NCBI GenBank assembly: GCA_947595585.1
Contig: CANQET010000008.1
Span: forward strand, 23,433-87,432
Direction of reading: 5' to 3'
DNA length: 64,000 nt
Origin: an uncultured Clostridia bacterium
GTDB taxonomy: Bacteria; Bacillota; Clostridia; Christensenellales; Borkfalkiaceae
Shown here piece after piece: positions 21,416-48,270 of this stretch. Positions within the stretch are counted from its first letter, which is position 1. Each line of letters starts with the position of its first letter. The notes beneath the pieces were generated by a model that saw only the letters and a program-made list of their open reading frames with translations, did not search any database and was not told the origin of the DNA. The translations under genes were made by a program, and so were the position numbers.

Positions 21416-21460
21416 AAGAGGCACCGCTTTATGCGGGTCGCGGTAATGGTCCTGAATTGA

Positions 21461-21485
21461 GCGGTTTGGCGGTTCGCCAAACCGC
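21461..21485 (+). terminator. spoVG terminator
   Basis: GCGGTTTGGCG-gtt-CGCCAAACCGC perfect 11-bp stem. Confidence 0.7.
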
Positions 21486-21536
21486 TTATATTGTACCGCA
21501 AATCAGCAAGCGGAAAACCCGATTGCTGTGATAAAT

Positions 21537-21668
21537 TCATTTTTTCTTTTTCGCCAAGTTGTTCTTTTTCGCATAGTAAGCGGCAATTGCCGCTTTTTGC
21601 TTTTTCCGCGTCTCCGGAGTTTTGGCTTTTACATAGTTGCTTTTCTTTTTCTCTTTATTGAAAAACAT
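21537..21668 (-). CDS. 43-aa lysine-rich micro-ORF, coupled to the upstream 251-aa ORF
   Basis: not in ORF track (short); ATG 21668 lies 1 nt after the TGA of the upstream gene; MFFNKEKKKSNYVKAKTPETRKKQKAAIAAYYAKKNNLAKKKK. Confidence 0.3.
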   Translation of the reverse strand: MFFNKEKKKSNYVKAKTPETRKKQKAAIAAYYAKKNNLAKKKK

Positions 21669-21669
21669 C

Positions 21670-22425
21670 TCATTCGCCCTCCACGCTTATTACGGTATCA
21701 AAGTCGCATTCCTCACAATACGCTTGCAGCCGTTCTATTAGTTTTTCGCTCGGCTTAAATTTTTGCTTTATGAGATACATGTCTCGCATTTCATATAGCG
21801 GCGTTGCCATTATCTTTTGCTCGTCTATGTCATAAAAAATACAATAATTGCCCGAGTTTGTCCAATATCCGTAAAAATAATCAAAGGCAAATACTTTATG
21901 CCTTTCGTGCGTCGCCCTATTTCTAAAATATAATATCCGATGCGTATAACAAGCGTTCGAAAAAACATCCAACTCGTCGTCGAAAACCAATGTCTCTCTT
22001 TTATACAGCGGAAGCATGCAATATTCGTTCAACAGTCCACGGATATATACCGATAATTCTTGTGCGGTTATTAAAATTTCGGAAGTCTCAATTTCGTCAA
22101 AGACCGAAATATTTTCTTTTGAGGGGCGTATCCAAAGAGATTCATCCAATTCACCCAAATTTTCATCGTTGAAATACACCCTGTCGATGACGGTATTGAC
22201 GGCGTTATATATGTTTTCACTATCAGACCGATTGTATTCGTCTTTTAGTATATTCTCGATTTGGTTGCGCCTTTCCTTGCGCACTTCCACAAGTATGGGA
22301 ATGAGCTTATTCAAAAGCCCATTCTTATTTGACTTACCATTTTTGGTAAATTCGAAGCGTAGTGCGTCGATTTCCAAAATGTTCGCCACAAAGGACGAAA
22401 CCTTCACTTTGATTTTGTCGTTCAT
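21670..22425 (-). CDS. Orphan 251-aa protein; possible RHH-like N-terminus and WYL-like C-terminal half
   Basis: AGGAG SD 8 nt before ATG; consensus promoter; AT-rich codon usage; domain ideas from sequence pattern only. Confidence 0.6.
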   Translation of the reverse strand: MNDKIKVKVSSFVANILEIDALRFEFTKNGKSNKNGLLNKLIPILVEVRKERRNQIENILKDEYNRSDSENIYNAVNTVIDRVYFNDENLGELDESLWIRPSKENISVFDEIETSEILITAQELSVYIRGLLNEYCMLPLYKRETLVFDDELDVFSNACYTHRILYFRNRATHERHKVFAFDYFYGYWTNSGNYCIFYDIDEQKIMATPLYEMRDMYLIKQKFKPSEKLIERLQAYCEECDFDTVISVEGE

Positions 22426-22442
22426 CGGGTAACTCCTATCAT

Positions 22443-22471
22443 ATTATACAAACTGTCTACCCAAATGTCAA
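22443..22471 (-). promoter_or_regulatory. Promoter of the 251-aa ORF
   Basis: minus strand TTGACA-N17-TATAAT (perfect hexamers). Confidence 0.65.
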
Positions 22472-22536
22472 GGAAATCAACTGAAATAGTCAATGTTGTC
22501 TACCGTAGAACTAAGAATGCGGCCGACAGGATTTTC

Positions 22537-22565
22537 TTGAATAGCAGGCATTCTTTTGTTATAAT
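22537..22565 (+). promoter_or_regulatory. Upstream promoter P1 of the 113/91-aa pair
   Basis: TTGAAT-N17-TATAAT with TGt extension. Confidence 0.45.
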
Positions 22566-22597
22566 AAAACTGCAAGTGAAACAAGACGCCCCTACAC

Positions 22598-22626
22598 TTG
22601 ACAAAATTTATGCGAGGTATTAAAAT
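22598..22626 (+). promoter_or_regulatory. Proximal promoter P2 of the 113/91-aa pair
   Basis: TTGACA-N17-TAAAAT. Confidence 0.6.
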
Positions 22627-22662
22627 GAGTATAGTTGGCTTTTTGCTCAAGCCAAAAAAGAA

Positions 22663-23004
22663 ATGGCCAAAAAAGGAACAAAGTATGTAAGGGTCGGTAA
22701 ATACTATCTGACTTCCCATGCGCAGAATCGGATCGTTCAAAAGGAAAGAACTATAAAAAAGATCGATGTTTTGGACAATCTGTTTACAAAACCAAATGCC
22801 ATTACGCAAGTAAAATACAATAAGAACGGTAAACCCTCATATAATCGTGTGGGTAAGAGAATTACGACAAGCATAAATCCAACAAACAACAATGTTGCGA
22901 CTTGCCGACCTGTAAGCAAAAAAGAAATTAAACAATTCGGCTTGACTAATGTCGGAAAAAAGGGAGGAAAAAAGAAATATGTTAAGCAAAAGTCTGGAAA
23001 GTAA
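22663..23004 (+). CDS. Orphan basic 113-aa protein; candidate toxin (SHAxxR motif reminiscent of DUF4258/BECR-fold RNases)
   Basis: YYLTSHAQNRIVQKERTIKKIDV... motif; Lys-rich tail; overlaps the next ORF by 26 nt. Confidence 0.5.
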   Translation: MAKKGTKYVRVGKYYLTSHAQNRIVQKERTIKKIDVLDNLFTKPNAITQVKYNKNGKPSYNRVGKRITTSINPTNNNVATCRPVSKKEIKQFGLTNVGKKGGKKKYVKQKSGK

Positions 23005-23254
23005 ATTCACGCCGAGAGCAAAAGAAGAGGCGAAAAAACTTTTCGCCGAAATGAATATAACGGAGTTGAACGACGATAACCTCTATGCGGTTGAAGTTGA
23101 ACTTGACACAAGGATAAGCGGATTGGTTACGATGGATGAATGTGAGCACAAACCGATCGACCATGAGCTTCTGAAAATTTACGATACGCTGTCGGATATT
23201 ATTCTGGAGCACGAAGAAGAGATCGATTTTCTGAATAAGTTGTTTTTACAATAA
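22979..23254 (+). CDS. Orphan acidic 91-aa protein; candidate antidote/immunity partner
   Basis: AGGGAGGA SD 10 nt before ATG 22979; helical-looking, Asp/Glu-rich sequence. Confidence 0.5.
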   Translation: MLSKSLESKFTPRAKEEAKKLFAEMNITELNDDNLYAVEVELDTRISGLVTMDECEHKPIDHELLKIYDTLSDIILEHEEEIDFLNKLFLQ

Positions 23255-23319
23255 AAGAAAACGGTTTTGACAAAACAGATGATCCGTTTATAGGGCGGAC
23301 AAAACGAATACATTTCGTC

Positions 23320-24348
23320 TCAGAAACAGCGTTTGCTTCTCGCCTTCTTGCATTCTTCCACTTTATTGCACCCGTAGCAGAGTTCGTTTTCGAGCGCCTC
23401 CCCCGCAAAATATGCCTTGAGATTGCCGACCGTCGTCTCGGCGATGTTCGTGAGCGCCTCCTCGGTGAGGAAGGCCTGATGGCTCGTCACGATGACGTTG
23501 GGCATGGAGATGAGCCGCGCAAGCACGTCGTCCTCGACGATATGCCCCGAGAAATCGCGGAAGAAGAGCTCGGATTCCTCTTCATAGACGTCGAGACAGG
23601 CGGCGCCGACGATCCGCCTCTTGATGCCGTCGAGCAGGGCTTCGGCGTCGATGAGCGCCCCGCGGGAGGTATTCAGGATGACGACCCCCTTCTTGAGCTT
23701 GGGGATCGTCTCGCTCCCGATCAGGTGGTAGGTGTCTTCGGTGAGCGGGCAATGGAGAGAGATGATATCGCTTCGGCGGAAGAGTTCGTCGCGTGAGACG
23801 TACTCCGCAAGCCCCTCCGTCGGGTATTTATCGTGGGCGAGAACGTGCATACCGAAGCCGCGACAGATTTCGATGAAGATCTTGCCGATCTTGCCCGTCC
23901 CGATGACGCCCACCGTCTTCCCGTGCAGATCGAAGCCCGTGAGCCCGCTCAGGGAGAAATTGAAATCCTTGGTGCGGTTATAGGCCTTGTGGATGCGGCG
24001 GATGGACGTGAGGAGCAGCGCCATCGTGTGTTCGGCGACGGCATACGGGGAATACGCAGGCACGCGCACGACGTGTATCCTCCCGTAGCAGGAGGAAAGG
24101 TCGACGTTGTTGTACCCCGCACAGCGGAGAGCGAGGATGCCCACCCCGTAGCCCGCAAGTTTTTCGATGACGGCGCTGTCCACGACGTCGTTGACGAACA
24201 CGCACACGCCATCGTACCCCTCTGCAAGCTGTACGGTATCCGCGGTGAGCTTGGTCTCGAAGAATTTGAACGCGATCCCCGTCCCCTCCGCCGCGGCCGA
24301 AAAGTGTACGATATCATATTCTTTTGCATCAAAAAACGCGATCTTCAT
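23320..24348 (-). CDS. D-isomer-specific 2-hydroxyacid dehydrogenase (D-lactate dehydrogenase-like)
   Basis: GVIGTGKIGKIF NAD motif, R/E/H catalytic region; about 20-aa Cys-containing C-terminal tail. Confidence 0.85.
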   Translation of the reverse strand: MKIAFFDAKEYDIVHFSAAAEGTGIAFKFFETKLTADTVQLAEGYDGVCVFVNDVVDSAVIEKLAGYGVGILALRCAGYNNVDLSSCYGRIHVVRVPAYSPYAVAEHTMALLLTSIRRIHKAYNRTKDFNFSLSGLTGFDLHGKTVGVIGTGKIGKIFIEICRGFGMHVLAHDKYPTEGLAEYVSRDELFRRSDIISLHCPLTEDTYHLIGSETIPKLKKGVVILNTSRGALIDAEALLDGIKRRIVGAACLDVYEEESELFFRDFSGHIVEDDVLARLISMPNVIVTSHQAFLTEEALTNIAETTVGNLKAYFAGEALENELCYGCNKVEECKKARSKRCF

Positions 24349-46733: not shown

Positions 46734-47429
46734 TTATCCGCGAACGGCAAGCAGGGCGCGAAAAATCTCAAGATCTTCCGACGTTGTTATTTTAATATTT
46801 TTCTCGGAGCCGAGTGAATAATATACAATACCCCCAAGCTCTATCAACAAAGTGCATGTTGCAATAGAAGAAGTGATCCCCATTTTCAGCGCCTTTTCGT
46901 GAGCATCAAGAAGGGTCTTAATGGAAGTTGTATGCGGCGTTTGTGTCCGTCTTGCCTCACTCCGCGGCACTTGTTCACACGATTCAATACCGTCATGTGT
47001 GATCAAAATTGCCTCTGTGCAAGGGATCGCCGCTACAGCGTTTCCACACTTTTGAGCAACACGTATACTATCCGAAATAATATCATGGGAAACCAATGGA
47101 CGATTACCGTCATGCACAAGAATCAGGTCTTGCGGGTCGTGGCGGGAAGCGATGTCTCTTACGCCATTATATATGGACTCCTGACCCGTTTTTCCGCCAA
47201 CGACGATGTTTTCCAGTTTGGTAATGTGATATTGACGACAATACGCCGACAAAATGCATTCCCAGCCTTCCAAGCAAGCAATAACAATTCCATCAATGTT
47301 AGGGTGTGTTTGAAACGCCTCTAAAGCATACATGATGACGGGTTTATCGTTAATGTTGAGAAATTGCTTGGGGATCTCATTATGCATTCGTTGTCCTGTT
47401 CCCCCCGCTGTTAGCAATGCAATATTCAT
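46734..47429 (-). CDS. IspD/TarI-family cytidylyltransferase
   Basis: LLTAGGTGQRM...PKQF motif. Confidence 0.8.
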   Translation of the reverse strand: MNIALLTAGGTGQRMHNEIPKQFLNINDKPVIMYALEAFQTHPNIDGIVIACLEGWECILSAYCRQYHITKLENIVVGGKTGQESIYNGVRDIASRHDPQDLILVHDGNRPLVSHDIISDSIRVAQKCGNAVAAIPCTEAILITHDGIESCEQVPRSEARRTQTPHTTSIKTLLDAHEKALKMGITSSIATCTLLIELGGIVYYSLGSEKNIKITTSEDLEIFRALLAVRG

Positions 47430-47442
47430 CTTTTACTCCTTT

Positions 47443-48270
47443 TTACTCTCTTTCGTTTTTCACCGGAACATATTGCGTCTTGAGATGATGAGTTTGTCTC
47501 TTGCGCAAAGGCGGTAACTTCATATAATCGCCATAGCGGATAGTTAGAAATTTATCGTAATCCGCAAACACAAGGAATTTGTGTCCCTCAAAATCCAAAT
47601 CAATGAGATTATCATAATAGGTCTTGGGAACATCGTCTATTGTTTGTCCCCATGAACAGTTATCTGACATCTCACACTCATCAAAGGGATATTTCAGCAG
47701 GATCTTACGGAGCCTTGCAATCGCACGGCGCTTTCCGTAGCAGATCCAGATGAGATAGAACCAGAACAGGAACGGACGGAGCACATATCCCCACCAGCGG
47801 TCGGCGAAGATATACCAGAGGTTCATGGAGACGATAAAGTTGCAAAAGAGTTCCTTGTGATAGAGCTTCTTCCGCTCTTTGGGGGTGCAATCGGGCACGC
47901 CGTCCGCGGGGAAGATATCCAAAAAGAGGTACGCAACTTCCACATGCGAGGTGCTCTTGATGCGGAAACGGTCGTCCAAGAGCTTCATGAAGGGATAGAA
48001 GGCCTTCTTGCCGCGGTCTTCCGAGACGAGAAAATGTTCGCTGAGCGCACCCTCGCGGTGCACGATCTCGTAGAACTTTTCATAATCGGGGCGGGGCATG
48101 ATGACGTCCGCATCGTCGTCCCACGGGATGAAGCCCTTATGGCGTACGGCGCCGAGCAAAGTCCCGTAGGCGAGCGAATAGCGCAGTCCGTTTTCCCTGC
48201 AGATGCGGTCGAACTCCACAAGGAGACCGAGCAGGGCATCGTGGATCCCGTCGATGGTAAGATATTGCAT
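47443..48270 (-). CDS. LicD-family phosphotransferase
   Basis: LAYGTLLGAVRHKGFIPWDDDADV motif (DxD). Confidence 0.8.
   Translation of the reverse strand: MQYLTIDGIHDALLGLLVEFDRICRENGLRYSLAYGTLLGAVRHKGFIPWDDDADVIMPRPDYEKFYEIVHREGALSEHFLVSEDRGKKAFYPFMKLLDDRFRIKSTSHVEVAYLFLDIFPADGVPDCTPKERKKLYHKELFCNFIVSMNLWYIFADRWWGYVLRPFLFWFYLIWICYGKRRAIARLRKILLKYPFDECEMSDNCSWGQTIDDVPKTYYDNLIDLDFEGHKFLVFADYDKFLTIRYGDYMKLPPLRKRQTHHLKTQYVPVKNERE

Follow-up and report, generated by a model that had tools for sequence, protein, structure and literature searches.

What is the AT-rich islet that lies between spoVG and a dehydrogenase gene in the chromosome of an uncultured Clostridia bacterium, and what might its four open reading frames (ORFs) do? 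The window, that is, the whole stretch of DNA analyzed, comprises 64,000 nucleotides (assembly GCA_947595585.1, contig CANQET010000008.1, positions 23,433 to 87,432), and the islet occupies positions 21486-23319 within it. A preliminary description, made from the letters of the window, had reported four ORFs in two divergent units, and all of them, here called A, B, C, and D, are present as described. With moderate confidence, we interpret the islet as a compact, mobile, sensor-controlled toxin-antitoxin (TA), or toxin-immunity, cassette of gut Clostridia, in which A would be the regulator, C the toxin, and D its antidote. The coordinates of the features are collected in Table 1.

Composition, distribution, and borders of the cassette

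The G+C content of the islet is 0.381, compared with a mean of 0.580 (standard deviation 0.026, minimum 0.477) for the other 1834-nt windows of the 64 kb (z = -7.5). In 300-nt windows, G+C is 0.35-0.40 within the islet and 0.55-0.67 beyond it. The G+C content at third codon positions (GC3) is 0.37-0.50 in ORFs A-D versus 0.62-0.81 in murC, spoVG, ldhA, htpG, and groEL. The sharp break in composition noted in the preliminary description is therefore borne out, both by sliding-window G+C and by the lower GC3 of the four ORFs. The flanking genes are also those named there: one is spoVG (SpoVG in Pfam, 7.6e-34), and the other, ldhA, encodes a D-2-hydroxyacid dehydrogenase.

The ORFs had been called orphans, which does not hold. 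The homologues of A fall into 358 clusters (E<=0.001), the best 120 of which are 65-100% identical and 250-256 aa long; C has 102 homologue clusters; and a genome scan located the cassette in 49 species-representative genomes, all of them from animal or human gut metagenomes. The record titles of these carriers mostly read Clostridia bacterium, Christensenellaceae/Christensenellales bacterium, or Candidatus Scatosoma. Labels of metagenome-assembled genomes (MAGs) are unreliable (NCBI places Candidatus Fimimonas under Myxococcaceae), and the host range is therefore given only loosely. The layout is constant throughout: D and C on the minus strand, approximately 242 bp, then A and B on the plus strand, with a nearly fixed distance between the starts of A and C. 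The ratio of nonsynonymous to synonymous substitution rates (dN/dS) is 0.06 for A, measured against L009 and L011, the two closest full copies (loci are numbered with the prefix L). It is 0.05-0.14 for B, 0.14-0.21 for C, and about 0.1 for D.

None of the four window proteins gave a significant match in Pfam, NCBIfam, PADLOC, or PHROGs. This absence of direct matches could suggest that A-D are chance AT-rich ORFs in a non-functional intergenic remnant. Hundreds of full-length homologues, a constant gene order and spacing, and dN/dS values of 0.06-0.21 refute this explanation, to which we assign practically no probability. Ordinary metabolic or structural families, raised in the preliminary description as a possible counter-explanation, likewise account for none of the four ORFs in these collections.

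The cassette is horizontally mobile. Its neighbor genes differ in nearly every locus, and clustering of the flanking ORFs recovered common neighbors only for L002, L003, L004, and L020. The cassette is flanked by iPGM and plsY in L001, by a zinc-ribbon gene (next to mgtE) and dnaJ in L002, and by a GDSL-lipase-like gene (next to veg) and unannotated ORFs in L005. The closest copies come from the rabbit-gut MAGs L006-L011, in which A is 83-91% identical to that of the window, and the flanks differ there too. The four genes thus stand at differing loci in relatives and are not universally fixed at the spoVG/dehydrogenase junction. Cassette G+C stays at approximately 0.30-0.38 across hosts of 0.30-0.57, so that the cassette is AT-rich wherever the host is not.

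No mobility function was located at the islet, in agreement with the preliminary description: there is no recombinase gene, no tRNA gene lies within 7 kb, and no convincing terminal direct or inverted repeats of the cassette were found (AT-rich chance pairs only). A had no match in phage, plasmid, and IMG/VR collections, and a fold comparison of A with BFVD yielded nothing informative. A metagenome scan with ldhA for an empty spoVG/ldhA site gave relatives of at most 74% identity, none with spoVG near, and in L142, a 79% relative, ldhA lies in another context; no true empty site was found.

Synonymous divergence (dS) between the window and L009/L011 is 1.25-1.49 for A and 0.26-0.67 for C and D; the values for B are 1.31 (L009) and 0.34 (L011). 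Because dS is lower in C and D than in A of the same cassette pairs, the toxin half appears to have been exchanged more recently than A, and this contrast suggests recombination within the promoter region or close by.

One genome (JAFVXY010000005.1) carries two cassettes, L034 and L048, located approximately 83 kb apart. Their A proteins are 66% and 50% identical to that of the window, their putative operator boxes (described below) read TGTCTACT and TGTAAACC, respectively, and their toxin and partner types differ. Together they look like an orthogonal cassette pair.

With respect to the borders, the break in composition at 21486-23319 is real, but homology to other copies places the ends of the cassette further out. 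On the B side, the islet adjoins a palindromic hairpin with fully (100%) complementary arms, which had been taken for the spoVG terminator. This assignment is contradicted by other copies: the hairpin and its flanks (21454-21502) are kept downstream of B in L006, L008, L009, and L010, at loci unrelated to that of the window, and the hairpin is therefore part of the cassette and not of spoVG. Between B and the hairpin, about 80 nt of the relatives' sequence are missing from the window. On the opposite side, 3' of D, lies a 70-nt remnant of a third gene, which is acidic and intact in L011. The remnant has the frame translation ENGFDKTDDPFIGRTKRIHFVSE and runs into the last codons and stop codon of ldhA. 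With this remnant included, the cassette spans approximately 21454-23326 and touches the ldhA stop codon.

A search of Rfam gave a sub-threshold match to a cyanobacterial heterocyst small RNA at 21435-21487 (31.9 bits versus a threshold of 35.7), on both strands of the palindromic hairpin. We treated this identity as chance, most likely a generic hairpin match.

The regulator candidate and the divergent control region

A is predicted to bear a WYL sensor domain. Its AlphaFold2 (AF2) model (predicted local distance difference test, pLDDT, 75.7) is helical in its N-terminal part and has a beta domain at the C-terminus, with the WYL fold at approximately 160-225; residues 101-122 form a disordered linker. 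A Foldseek search of the PDB matched this model to DriD (9cu3_B, E 1.4e-4, root-mean-square deviation, rmsd, 1.9 over 81 columns) and also to BrxR, CapW, and PafBC, with probabilities of 0.99-1.0 for all four. At the sequence level, the L049 homologue, which is 47% identical, scores 22.6 bits on the Pfam WYL model PF13280 (gathering threshold 21.8), and another family member reaches E 0.025. A of the window itself gave no WYL match in Pfam, and a PDB sequence profile search returned noise only.

In the model, the N-terminus of A consists of strand/coil, a helix, a hairpin, and a long helix. The sequence has alternating invariant residues K4, K6, and K8, followed by a helix and then by invariant N33-K34-N35, which opens the next helix. 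On the basis of these two invariant groups, the N-terminus suggests a ribbon-helix-helix arrangement.

The fold of A also bears on a different explanation of the locus, in which A, alone or with B, would be an unrecognized recombinase or transposase of a miniature mobile element and C-D its addiction cargo. Such an element would explain how the cassette moved among many housekeeping loci without a known mobility gene, and why non-coding sequence, including the perfect 12-bp-stem hairpin, is conserved at both ends. However, the domain of A that is modeled with confidence is a ligand-binding WYL barrel, the remainder of the protein consists of helices, searches with A matched no nuclease, recombinase, or DDE-like protein, and neither terminal inverted repeats nor target-site duplications were found. 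Moreover, usually one copy per genome is seen, and no true empty site is available to define the ends. A was accordingly rejected as a transposase or recombinase on account of its fold and the lack of end repeats. We consider the miniature element highly improbable, the least likely of the rivals that remain once chance ORFs are set aside.

A is accompanied by the lysine-rich micro-protein B. The preliminary description had proposed that the 43-aa ORF is coupled to the 251-aa ORF, and the adjacency is indeed kept across loci: B starts 2 nt past the A stop codon in the window and between -19 and +6 nt from the end of that codon elsewhere, mostly between -13 and +2. B is thus likely to be translationally coupled to A. 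Its core, (Y/F)VKAKTPEA(R/K)KKQKAAIAxYYxKK, is found almost invariant in nearly all of approximately 50 loci.

The promoters described earlier as near-perfect stand up to scrutiny, since the three best sigma-70-like sites of the region are PA (12/12), P2 (11/12), and P1 (10/12 plus TG). PA reads toward A, and P1 toward the C-D operon. Three short boxes lie among them. The exact sequence TGTCTACC occurs only twice in the 64 kb, as boxes 1 and 2, against an expectation of 0.3, and box 3 is an inverted version. In an A subfamily at about 50% identity, TGTAAACC replaces TGTCTACC at the same offsets. This co-variation between box and A subfamily offers good indirect evidence that A binds the boxes.

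Between P1 and the C gene, the C-D transcript would begin with a stem-loop whose CAAG/CTTG base is fixed and whose extension varies yet stays complementary (mean stem 6.7 bp versus 4.6 in shuffles). This structure might affect stability or bind B or C. The 3' arm of the stem also forms the -35 element of P2, and the -10 element of P2 ends at the ATG from which most members of the C family start. Equivalents of P2 in L005-L053 read TTGAC-17-TATAAT, often with TG, and are kept even in loci that carry C5, an unrelated toxin. P2 may thus be only promoter-like in sequence or may work as a promoter. Its transcript would begin past the family ATG, and could then encode a short toxin from an internal ATG in loci of toxin type C1 and only the partner in C5 loci; we regard this as a lead and not as a finding.

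The resemblance of A to DriD and PafBC raises the possibility of a damage checkpoint, in which A, an activator of the DriD/PafBC kind, would respond to single-stranded DNA by inducing a small growth inhibitor, C, buffered by D, as a lineage-specific, SOS-independent stress response. DriD, the best structural match of A, and PafBC are both DNA-damage activators, the placement of boxes 2 and 3, 5' of the P1 -35 element, is typical of activators, and A and B are very strongly conserved. On the other hand, the cassette occupies a different locus in almost every species, has been deleted in sister strains (see below), and is of foreign composition; unrelated toxins, C1 and C5, are swapped along with matching partners, and two orthogonal copies can share one genome. 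These are features of accessory conflict modules and not of a core stress response. P1 is also strong alone (10/12 plus TG), which is a better fit to repression. We therefore consider the checkpoint unlikely.

The toxin candidate and its partner

To place C, a C-family profile was searched against 1.84 billion representatives, which yielded 177 relatives. The distant ones bear the C-like region at the extreme C-terminus of long proteins, which Pfam assigns to phage MuF/minor-capsid, VgrG, DUF637 (CdiA-type), portal, and TPR proteins. Of ten such long proteins that were scanned, eight have a DUF4258 (PF14076) match over the C-like region as well; two of these matches pass the gathering threshold of 25 with 28.4 and 29.3 bits, and the others are weaker. 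The C-family profile finds the proteins with this DUF4258 region at E 1e-6 to 4e-4. At the residue level, C and two MuF toxin tips have in common the motif Y-x-(I/L)-(T/S)-x-H-A...NP-x-(T/N)-N. Similarly, tblastn with C reached the C-termini of minor-capsid/head-morphogenesis proteins of Streptococcus prophages and a Flavonifractor phage. In the AF2 model of C (pLDDT 81), the top three Foldseek matches are the BECR-fold tRNase toxin CdiA-CT of E. coli NC101 (5i4r, 5i4q), at a probability of 0.9; a PDB sequence profile search with C gave noise only. By transitive homology, C thus appears to be a relative of the DUF4258/BECR toxin superfamily. DUF4258 is listed among the BECR-fold toxins of type II TA systems in the RelE/ParE superfamily, with activity unknown (PMC11980606), and MuF toxins are accompanied by small immunity ORFs downstream (PMC5576092).

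The start of C differs from that of its family. Most relatives are 125-126 aa long and start 13 codons upstream, at an ATG equivalent to 22625 with a good Shine-Dalgarno (SD) sequence. The A-run of the window at 22651-22666 (GCCAAAAAAGAAATGG) has six A residues where relatives have seven bases (A7, or N then A6), and the first 13 codons of the family are consequently out of frame. A second assembly, L135, has the same A6, which may be due either to a mutation that became fixed or to slippage in the homopolymer. The C domain is intact from the ATG at 22663, and this short form is the sole form in several other lineages too. As a result of the frameshift, the ATG at 22663 is overlapped by an upstream ORF of 21 codons (MSIVGFLLKPKKKWPKKEQSM). 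In L015, a second C-type gene follows D2 (order C, D2, C, A), which may be a duplicated or orphan toxin.

C is followed by D. The overlapping pair of a basic 113-aa and an acidic 91-aa protein noted in the preliminary description is confirmed, with isoelectric points (pI) of 10.6 and 4.5 and an overlap of 26 nt. A GGGAGG SD sequence lies upstream of D, and homologues, which begin with MLSEIQKNKF at the position of ATG 22979, show the 91-aa version to be correct. D of the window is of type D4. Types D4, D6, and D2 are homologous according to hhalign (D4-D6, E 1.6e-7; D6-D2, E 2.7e-9), and D3, which accompanies the unrelated toxin C5, is unrelated to them. C5 itself had no match in phage records, and Pfam gave nothing for C5 or for the partners D2, D3, and D6.

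Toxin and partner types are strictly paired. C1a occurs with D4 in 8 of 8 cases, C1b with D2, D6, or D22 in 16 of 17, and C5 with D3 in 8 of 8, with no cross-pairing. Tandem pairs of D-family genes are present in L011, L031, and L033. P0222 is a 159-aa ORF in which a C-type toxin, represented by its C-terminal half, is fused across the usual overlap to a complete D4-type partner, through either a natural frameshift or an error of assembly.

A deletion allele in sister strains complements these data. Three assemblies (L139-L141) are 98.8-99.2% identical to the window and have the same flanks, htpG-csp-ldhA and spoVG-murC-glgB, and lack 21546-22958, so that A and the promoter region are gone entirely, together with nearly all of B and the larger part of C. 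The junction reads CATTTTTT/TCGTC/AAAGGGAGG. The pieces of B and C that are left identify a derived deletion and not an empty site. D is kept and is 100% identical, and the loss of toxin and regulator while the acidic partner stays is a prediction of toxin-antidote logic.

In these three assemblies both promoters of D are gone (junction equivalent to 21545/22959), and D now lies 155 nt 3' of spoVG, on the same strand and behind the cassette hairpin. Its expression there would require read-through.

The overlap with C, the strict pairing of types, and the retention of D when the toxin is deleted together indicate that D probably behaves as the cognate antidote of C. The preliminary description had seen a regulator divergent from a toxin/antidote-type pair, and the predicted WYL domain of A, the relation of C to DUF4258/BECR toxins, and the pairing and retention of D agree with it. 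It had also held that no protein could be placed in a named family with confidence; this remains so for B and D, but A (WYL) and C (DUF4258/BECR) can be placed in superfamilies. B has no family match in Pfam, NCBIfam, PADLOC, or PHROGs, and for D these collections gave no family match of any kind and no DNA-binding domain was recognized.

Retention of D could also mean that immunity is the function under selection, with D protecting against delivered DUF4258-type toxins of phage MuF proteins or competitors and C decaying or secondary. The sister strains that keep D alone and unchanged fit this account, as do the extra D-family genes in tandem (L011, L031, L033) and the remnant in the window, the phage-borne MuF toxin tips that are the closest characterized relatives of C, and the frameshifted usual start of C in the window. 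However, C is under purifying selection (dN/dS 0.14-0.21) and nearly every cassette contains it, the elaborate regulator (A and B) is conserved along with C, as are the operators, and D shows no significant similarity to the ORFs located after MuF toxins. An antitoxin kept after loss of its toxin is, moreover, equally predicted by plain TA logic. We judge an immunity-centered role a little less likely than the already unlikely checkpoint.

Table 1. Features of the cassette in the window, listed by position
Feature	Coordinates	Strand	Basis or remark
B-side cassette end with palindromic hairpin at 21460-21486 (12-bp stem)	21454-21536	-	Conserved 3' of B at unrelated loci
Gene B, 43 aa, lysine-rich, pI 10.4	21537-21668	-	Near-invariant motif; start adjoins A stop
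Gene A, 251 aa, regulator candidate	21670-22425	-	WYL fold match; homologues; dN/dS 0.06
Predicted promoter PA, TTGACA-17-TATAAT	22443-22471	-	12/12 consensus; box 1 in spacer
Putative operator box 1, TGTCTACC	22454-22461	-	+34 from A start in nearly all loci; in the 17-nt PA spacer
Putative operator box 2, TGTCTACC	22497-22504		+78 from A start
Putative operator box 3, inverted, GGCCGACA (GGTAGACA in most relatives)	22521-22528		+102 from A start; 8 nt upstream of P1 -35
Predicted promoter P1 of C-D operon, TTGAAT-17-TATAAT, upstream TG	22537-22565	+	Conserved across loci
5'-proximal stem-loop of C-D transcript, CAAGTG...CACTTG	22573-22600	+	Most loci
Promoter-like site P2, TTGACA-17-TAAAAT (TATAAT in most relatives)	22598-22626	+	11/12
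Family start codon of C and N-terminal extension (MSIxGFLxKxKKE), out of frame here	22625-22690	+	Alignments
Gene C, 113 aa, pI 10.6, candidate toxin, free-standing DUF4258-like domain	22663-23004	+	Profile homology; weak fold match
Gene D, 91 aa, acidic, pI 4.5, antitoxin/immunity candidate	22979-23254	+	C overlap; type pairing; retention
Remnant of third, acidic D2-type gene	23257-23326	+	Aligns to coding sequence of the intact gene in L007, L010, L011

Elsewhere in the window, the second lowest G+C stretch lies at 46734-48270 (0.48-0.51). It contains a 231-aa cytidylyltransferase-like and a 275-aa LicD-like ORF beside an epimerase-like gene, names taken from the translations, and these look like genes for the decoration of surface polymers.

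Proposed mechanism and relation to known systems

In the TA cassette that we favor, A would act on the three 8-bp boxes of the 237-bp divergent region (22426-22662), repressing PA and controlling P1. Repression of PA is suggested by the location of box 1 inside the PA spacer, and control of P1 by boxes 2 and 3, which abut its -35 element. The WYL domain would take a signal. DriD, PafBC, CapW, and BrxR suggest by analogy that this would be single-stranded DNA or some other nucleic acid produced when DNA is damaged or a phage attacks. This signal would alter DNA binding by A and lead to a burst of C-D transcription. C, as a putative RNase, would stop translation and thereby arrest growth, and D would neutralize C through direct binding. 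B, which would be produced along with A, probably assists the regulator as a cofactor that binds nucleic acids. Toxicity, neutralization, DNA binding, the ligand, the direction of regulation, and the role of the cassette (defense versus addiction) are all points that we infer from sequences and predicted folds.

Several observations weigh against this interpretation. With respect to the toxin, C of the window has no Pfam match at E<=1 (one of 28 family members reaches E 0.11), and the fold match between C and CdiA-CT is weak (E 0.08-0.12, template modeling score, TM, 0.36-0.45, rmsd approximately 8), so that the RNase reading rests on transitive homology. Because the family start is frameshifted, this copy may make little toxin or a shortened one. 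With respect to the antidote, D is without detectable relation to known antitoxins or immunity proteins, and its comparison with the small ORFs that follow MuF-DUF4258 toxins is not significant (hhalign probability 12% at best). The regulator is atypical too: neither the whole A protein nor its N-terminal fragments matched a helix-turn-helix (HTH) family, which leaves A without the winged HTH of characterized WYL regulators, and only about 25 residues with one helix (227-239) follow the WYL barrel, with no WCX domain. Boxes 2 and 3 are upstream of the P1 -35 element, not over it, and activation would also fit. Finally, none of A, B, C, and D matched PADLOC-DB 2.0 at E<=1, and no mobility function was located for the cassette.

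Comparison with known systems helps to define what is distinctive about the cassette. WYL regulators adjoining defense and TA systems are established (PMC9122601, PMC4012209), and those of the BrxR family sit beside defense and type II/IV TA systems (PMC9122601). A resembles BrxR, CapW, DriD, and PafBC in its predicted WYL domain, in the divergent orientation of its gene relative to an adjacent, predicted toxic operon, and in the repeated boxes of its own promoter region. It differs from them in being shorter (251 aa), in having no detectable winged HTH or WCX domain and an N-terminus that appears ribbon-helix-helix-like, and in being missed by the Pfam WYL model directly. It is also always accompanied by the 43-aa basic protein B, which is not described for those regulators.

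C is transitively related at the profile level to DUF4258 (PF14076) toxins, has a motif in common with them, and, like them, is a small basic protein followed by the gene for a small acidic partner. In contrast to those toxins, C of the window falls below the Pfam model and is free-standing, not the end of a delivery protein. The gene order here is toxin then antidote, whereas DUF4258 TA modules are listed as antitoxin then toxin (PMC11980606). D, unlike the antitoxins of those modules, belongs to no known antitoxin family and has no recognizable DNA-binding domain. As in type II TA systems, C and D are small, adjacent, overlapping, and basic/acidic, with paired types; however, D has no recognizable DNA-binding domain, and the operators co-vary with A instead.

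Three-component TA systems such as omega-epsilon-zeta and paaR-paaA-parE have a separate DNA-binding regulator, and omega binds heptad arrays. The cassette is similar in that control is delegated to a dedicated predicted DNA-binding protein, as the lack of a recognizable DNA-binding domain in D suggests, and its short repeated boxes recall the omega heptads. It differs in the predicted ligand-sensing WYL domain of A, the divergent transcription, the micro-protein of its own, and the unrelated toxin families. Polymorphic toxin-immunity loci offer a further parallel: alternative toxins with strictly matching partners occupy a conserved locus, tandem or remnant immunity genes are present, and the C domain is common to MuF, VgrG, and CdiA toxins. 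C, however, is free-standing (113-126 aa) with no delivery domain, no secretion genes lie nearby, and the predicted regulator is dedicated and intracellular. The new features are a regulator of non-canonical architecture, its obligatory micro-protein partner, the operator code, toxin pairs that are exchangeable and come from the pool of polymorphic toxins, and the absence from current defense catalogues (PADLOC).

A wider possibility, which we put forward tentatively and hold to be less than probable, is that the cassette represents an uncatalogued mobile family for abortive infection or stress-induced suicide. A non-canonical WYL sensor and its obligatory 43-aa B would gate interchangeable toxin-immunity pairs drawn from the polymorphic-toxin pool of phages and secretion systems. 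A constitutive P2 would give immunity-only transcripts, and the sensor-controlled P1 would give toxin plus immunity.

WYL regulators are emerging as common immune and suicide switches, and their natural signals and control logic are open questions. The cassette is a very small (1.8 kb), self-contained example, in which an operator code co-varies with the regulator and toxin-antidote pairs are interchangeable, and natural variants are at hand in the form of an orthogonal pair in one genome and an antidote-only deletion. It provides a first context for the uncharacterized DUF4258 toxin family in the poorly studied Christensenellaceae-type gut Clostridia, and links chromosomal TA-like modules to the toxin tips of phage MuF proteins. 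If C is toxic and A responds to a signal, the cassette would be a convenient model of such switches and a candidate entry for defense and TA catalogues.

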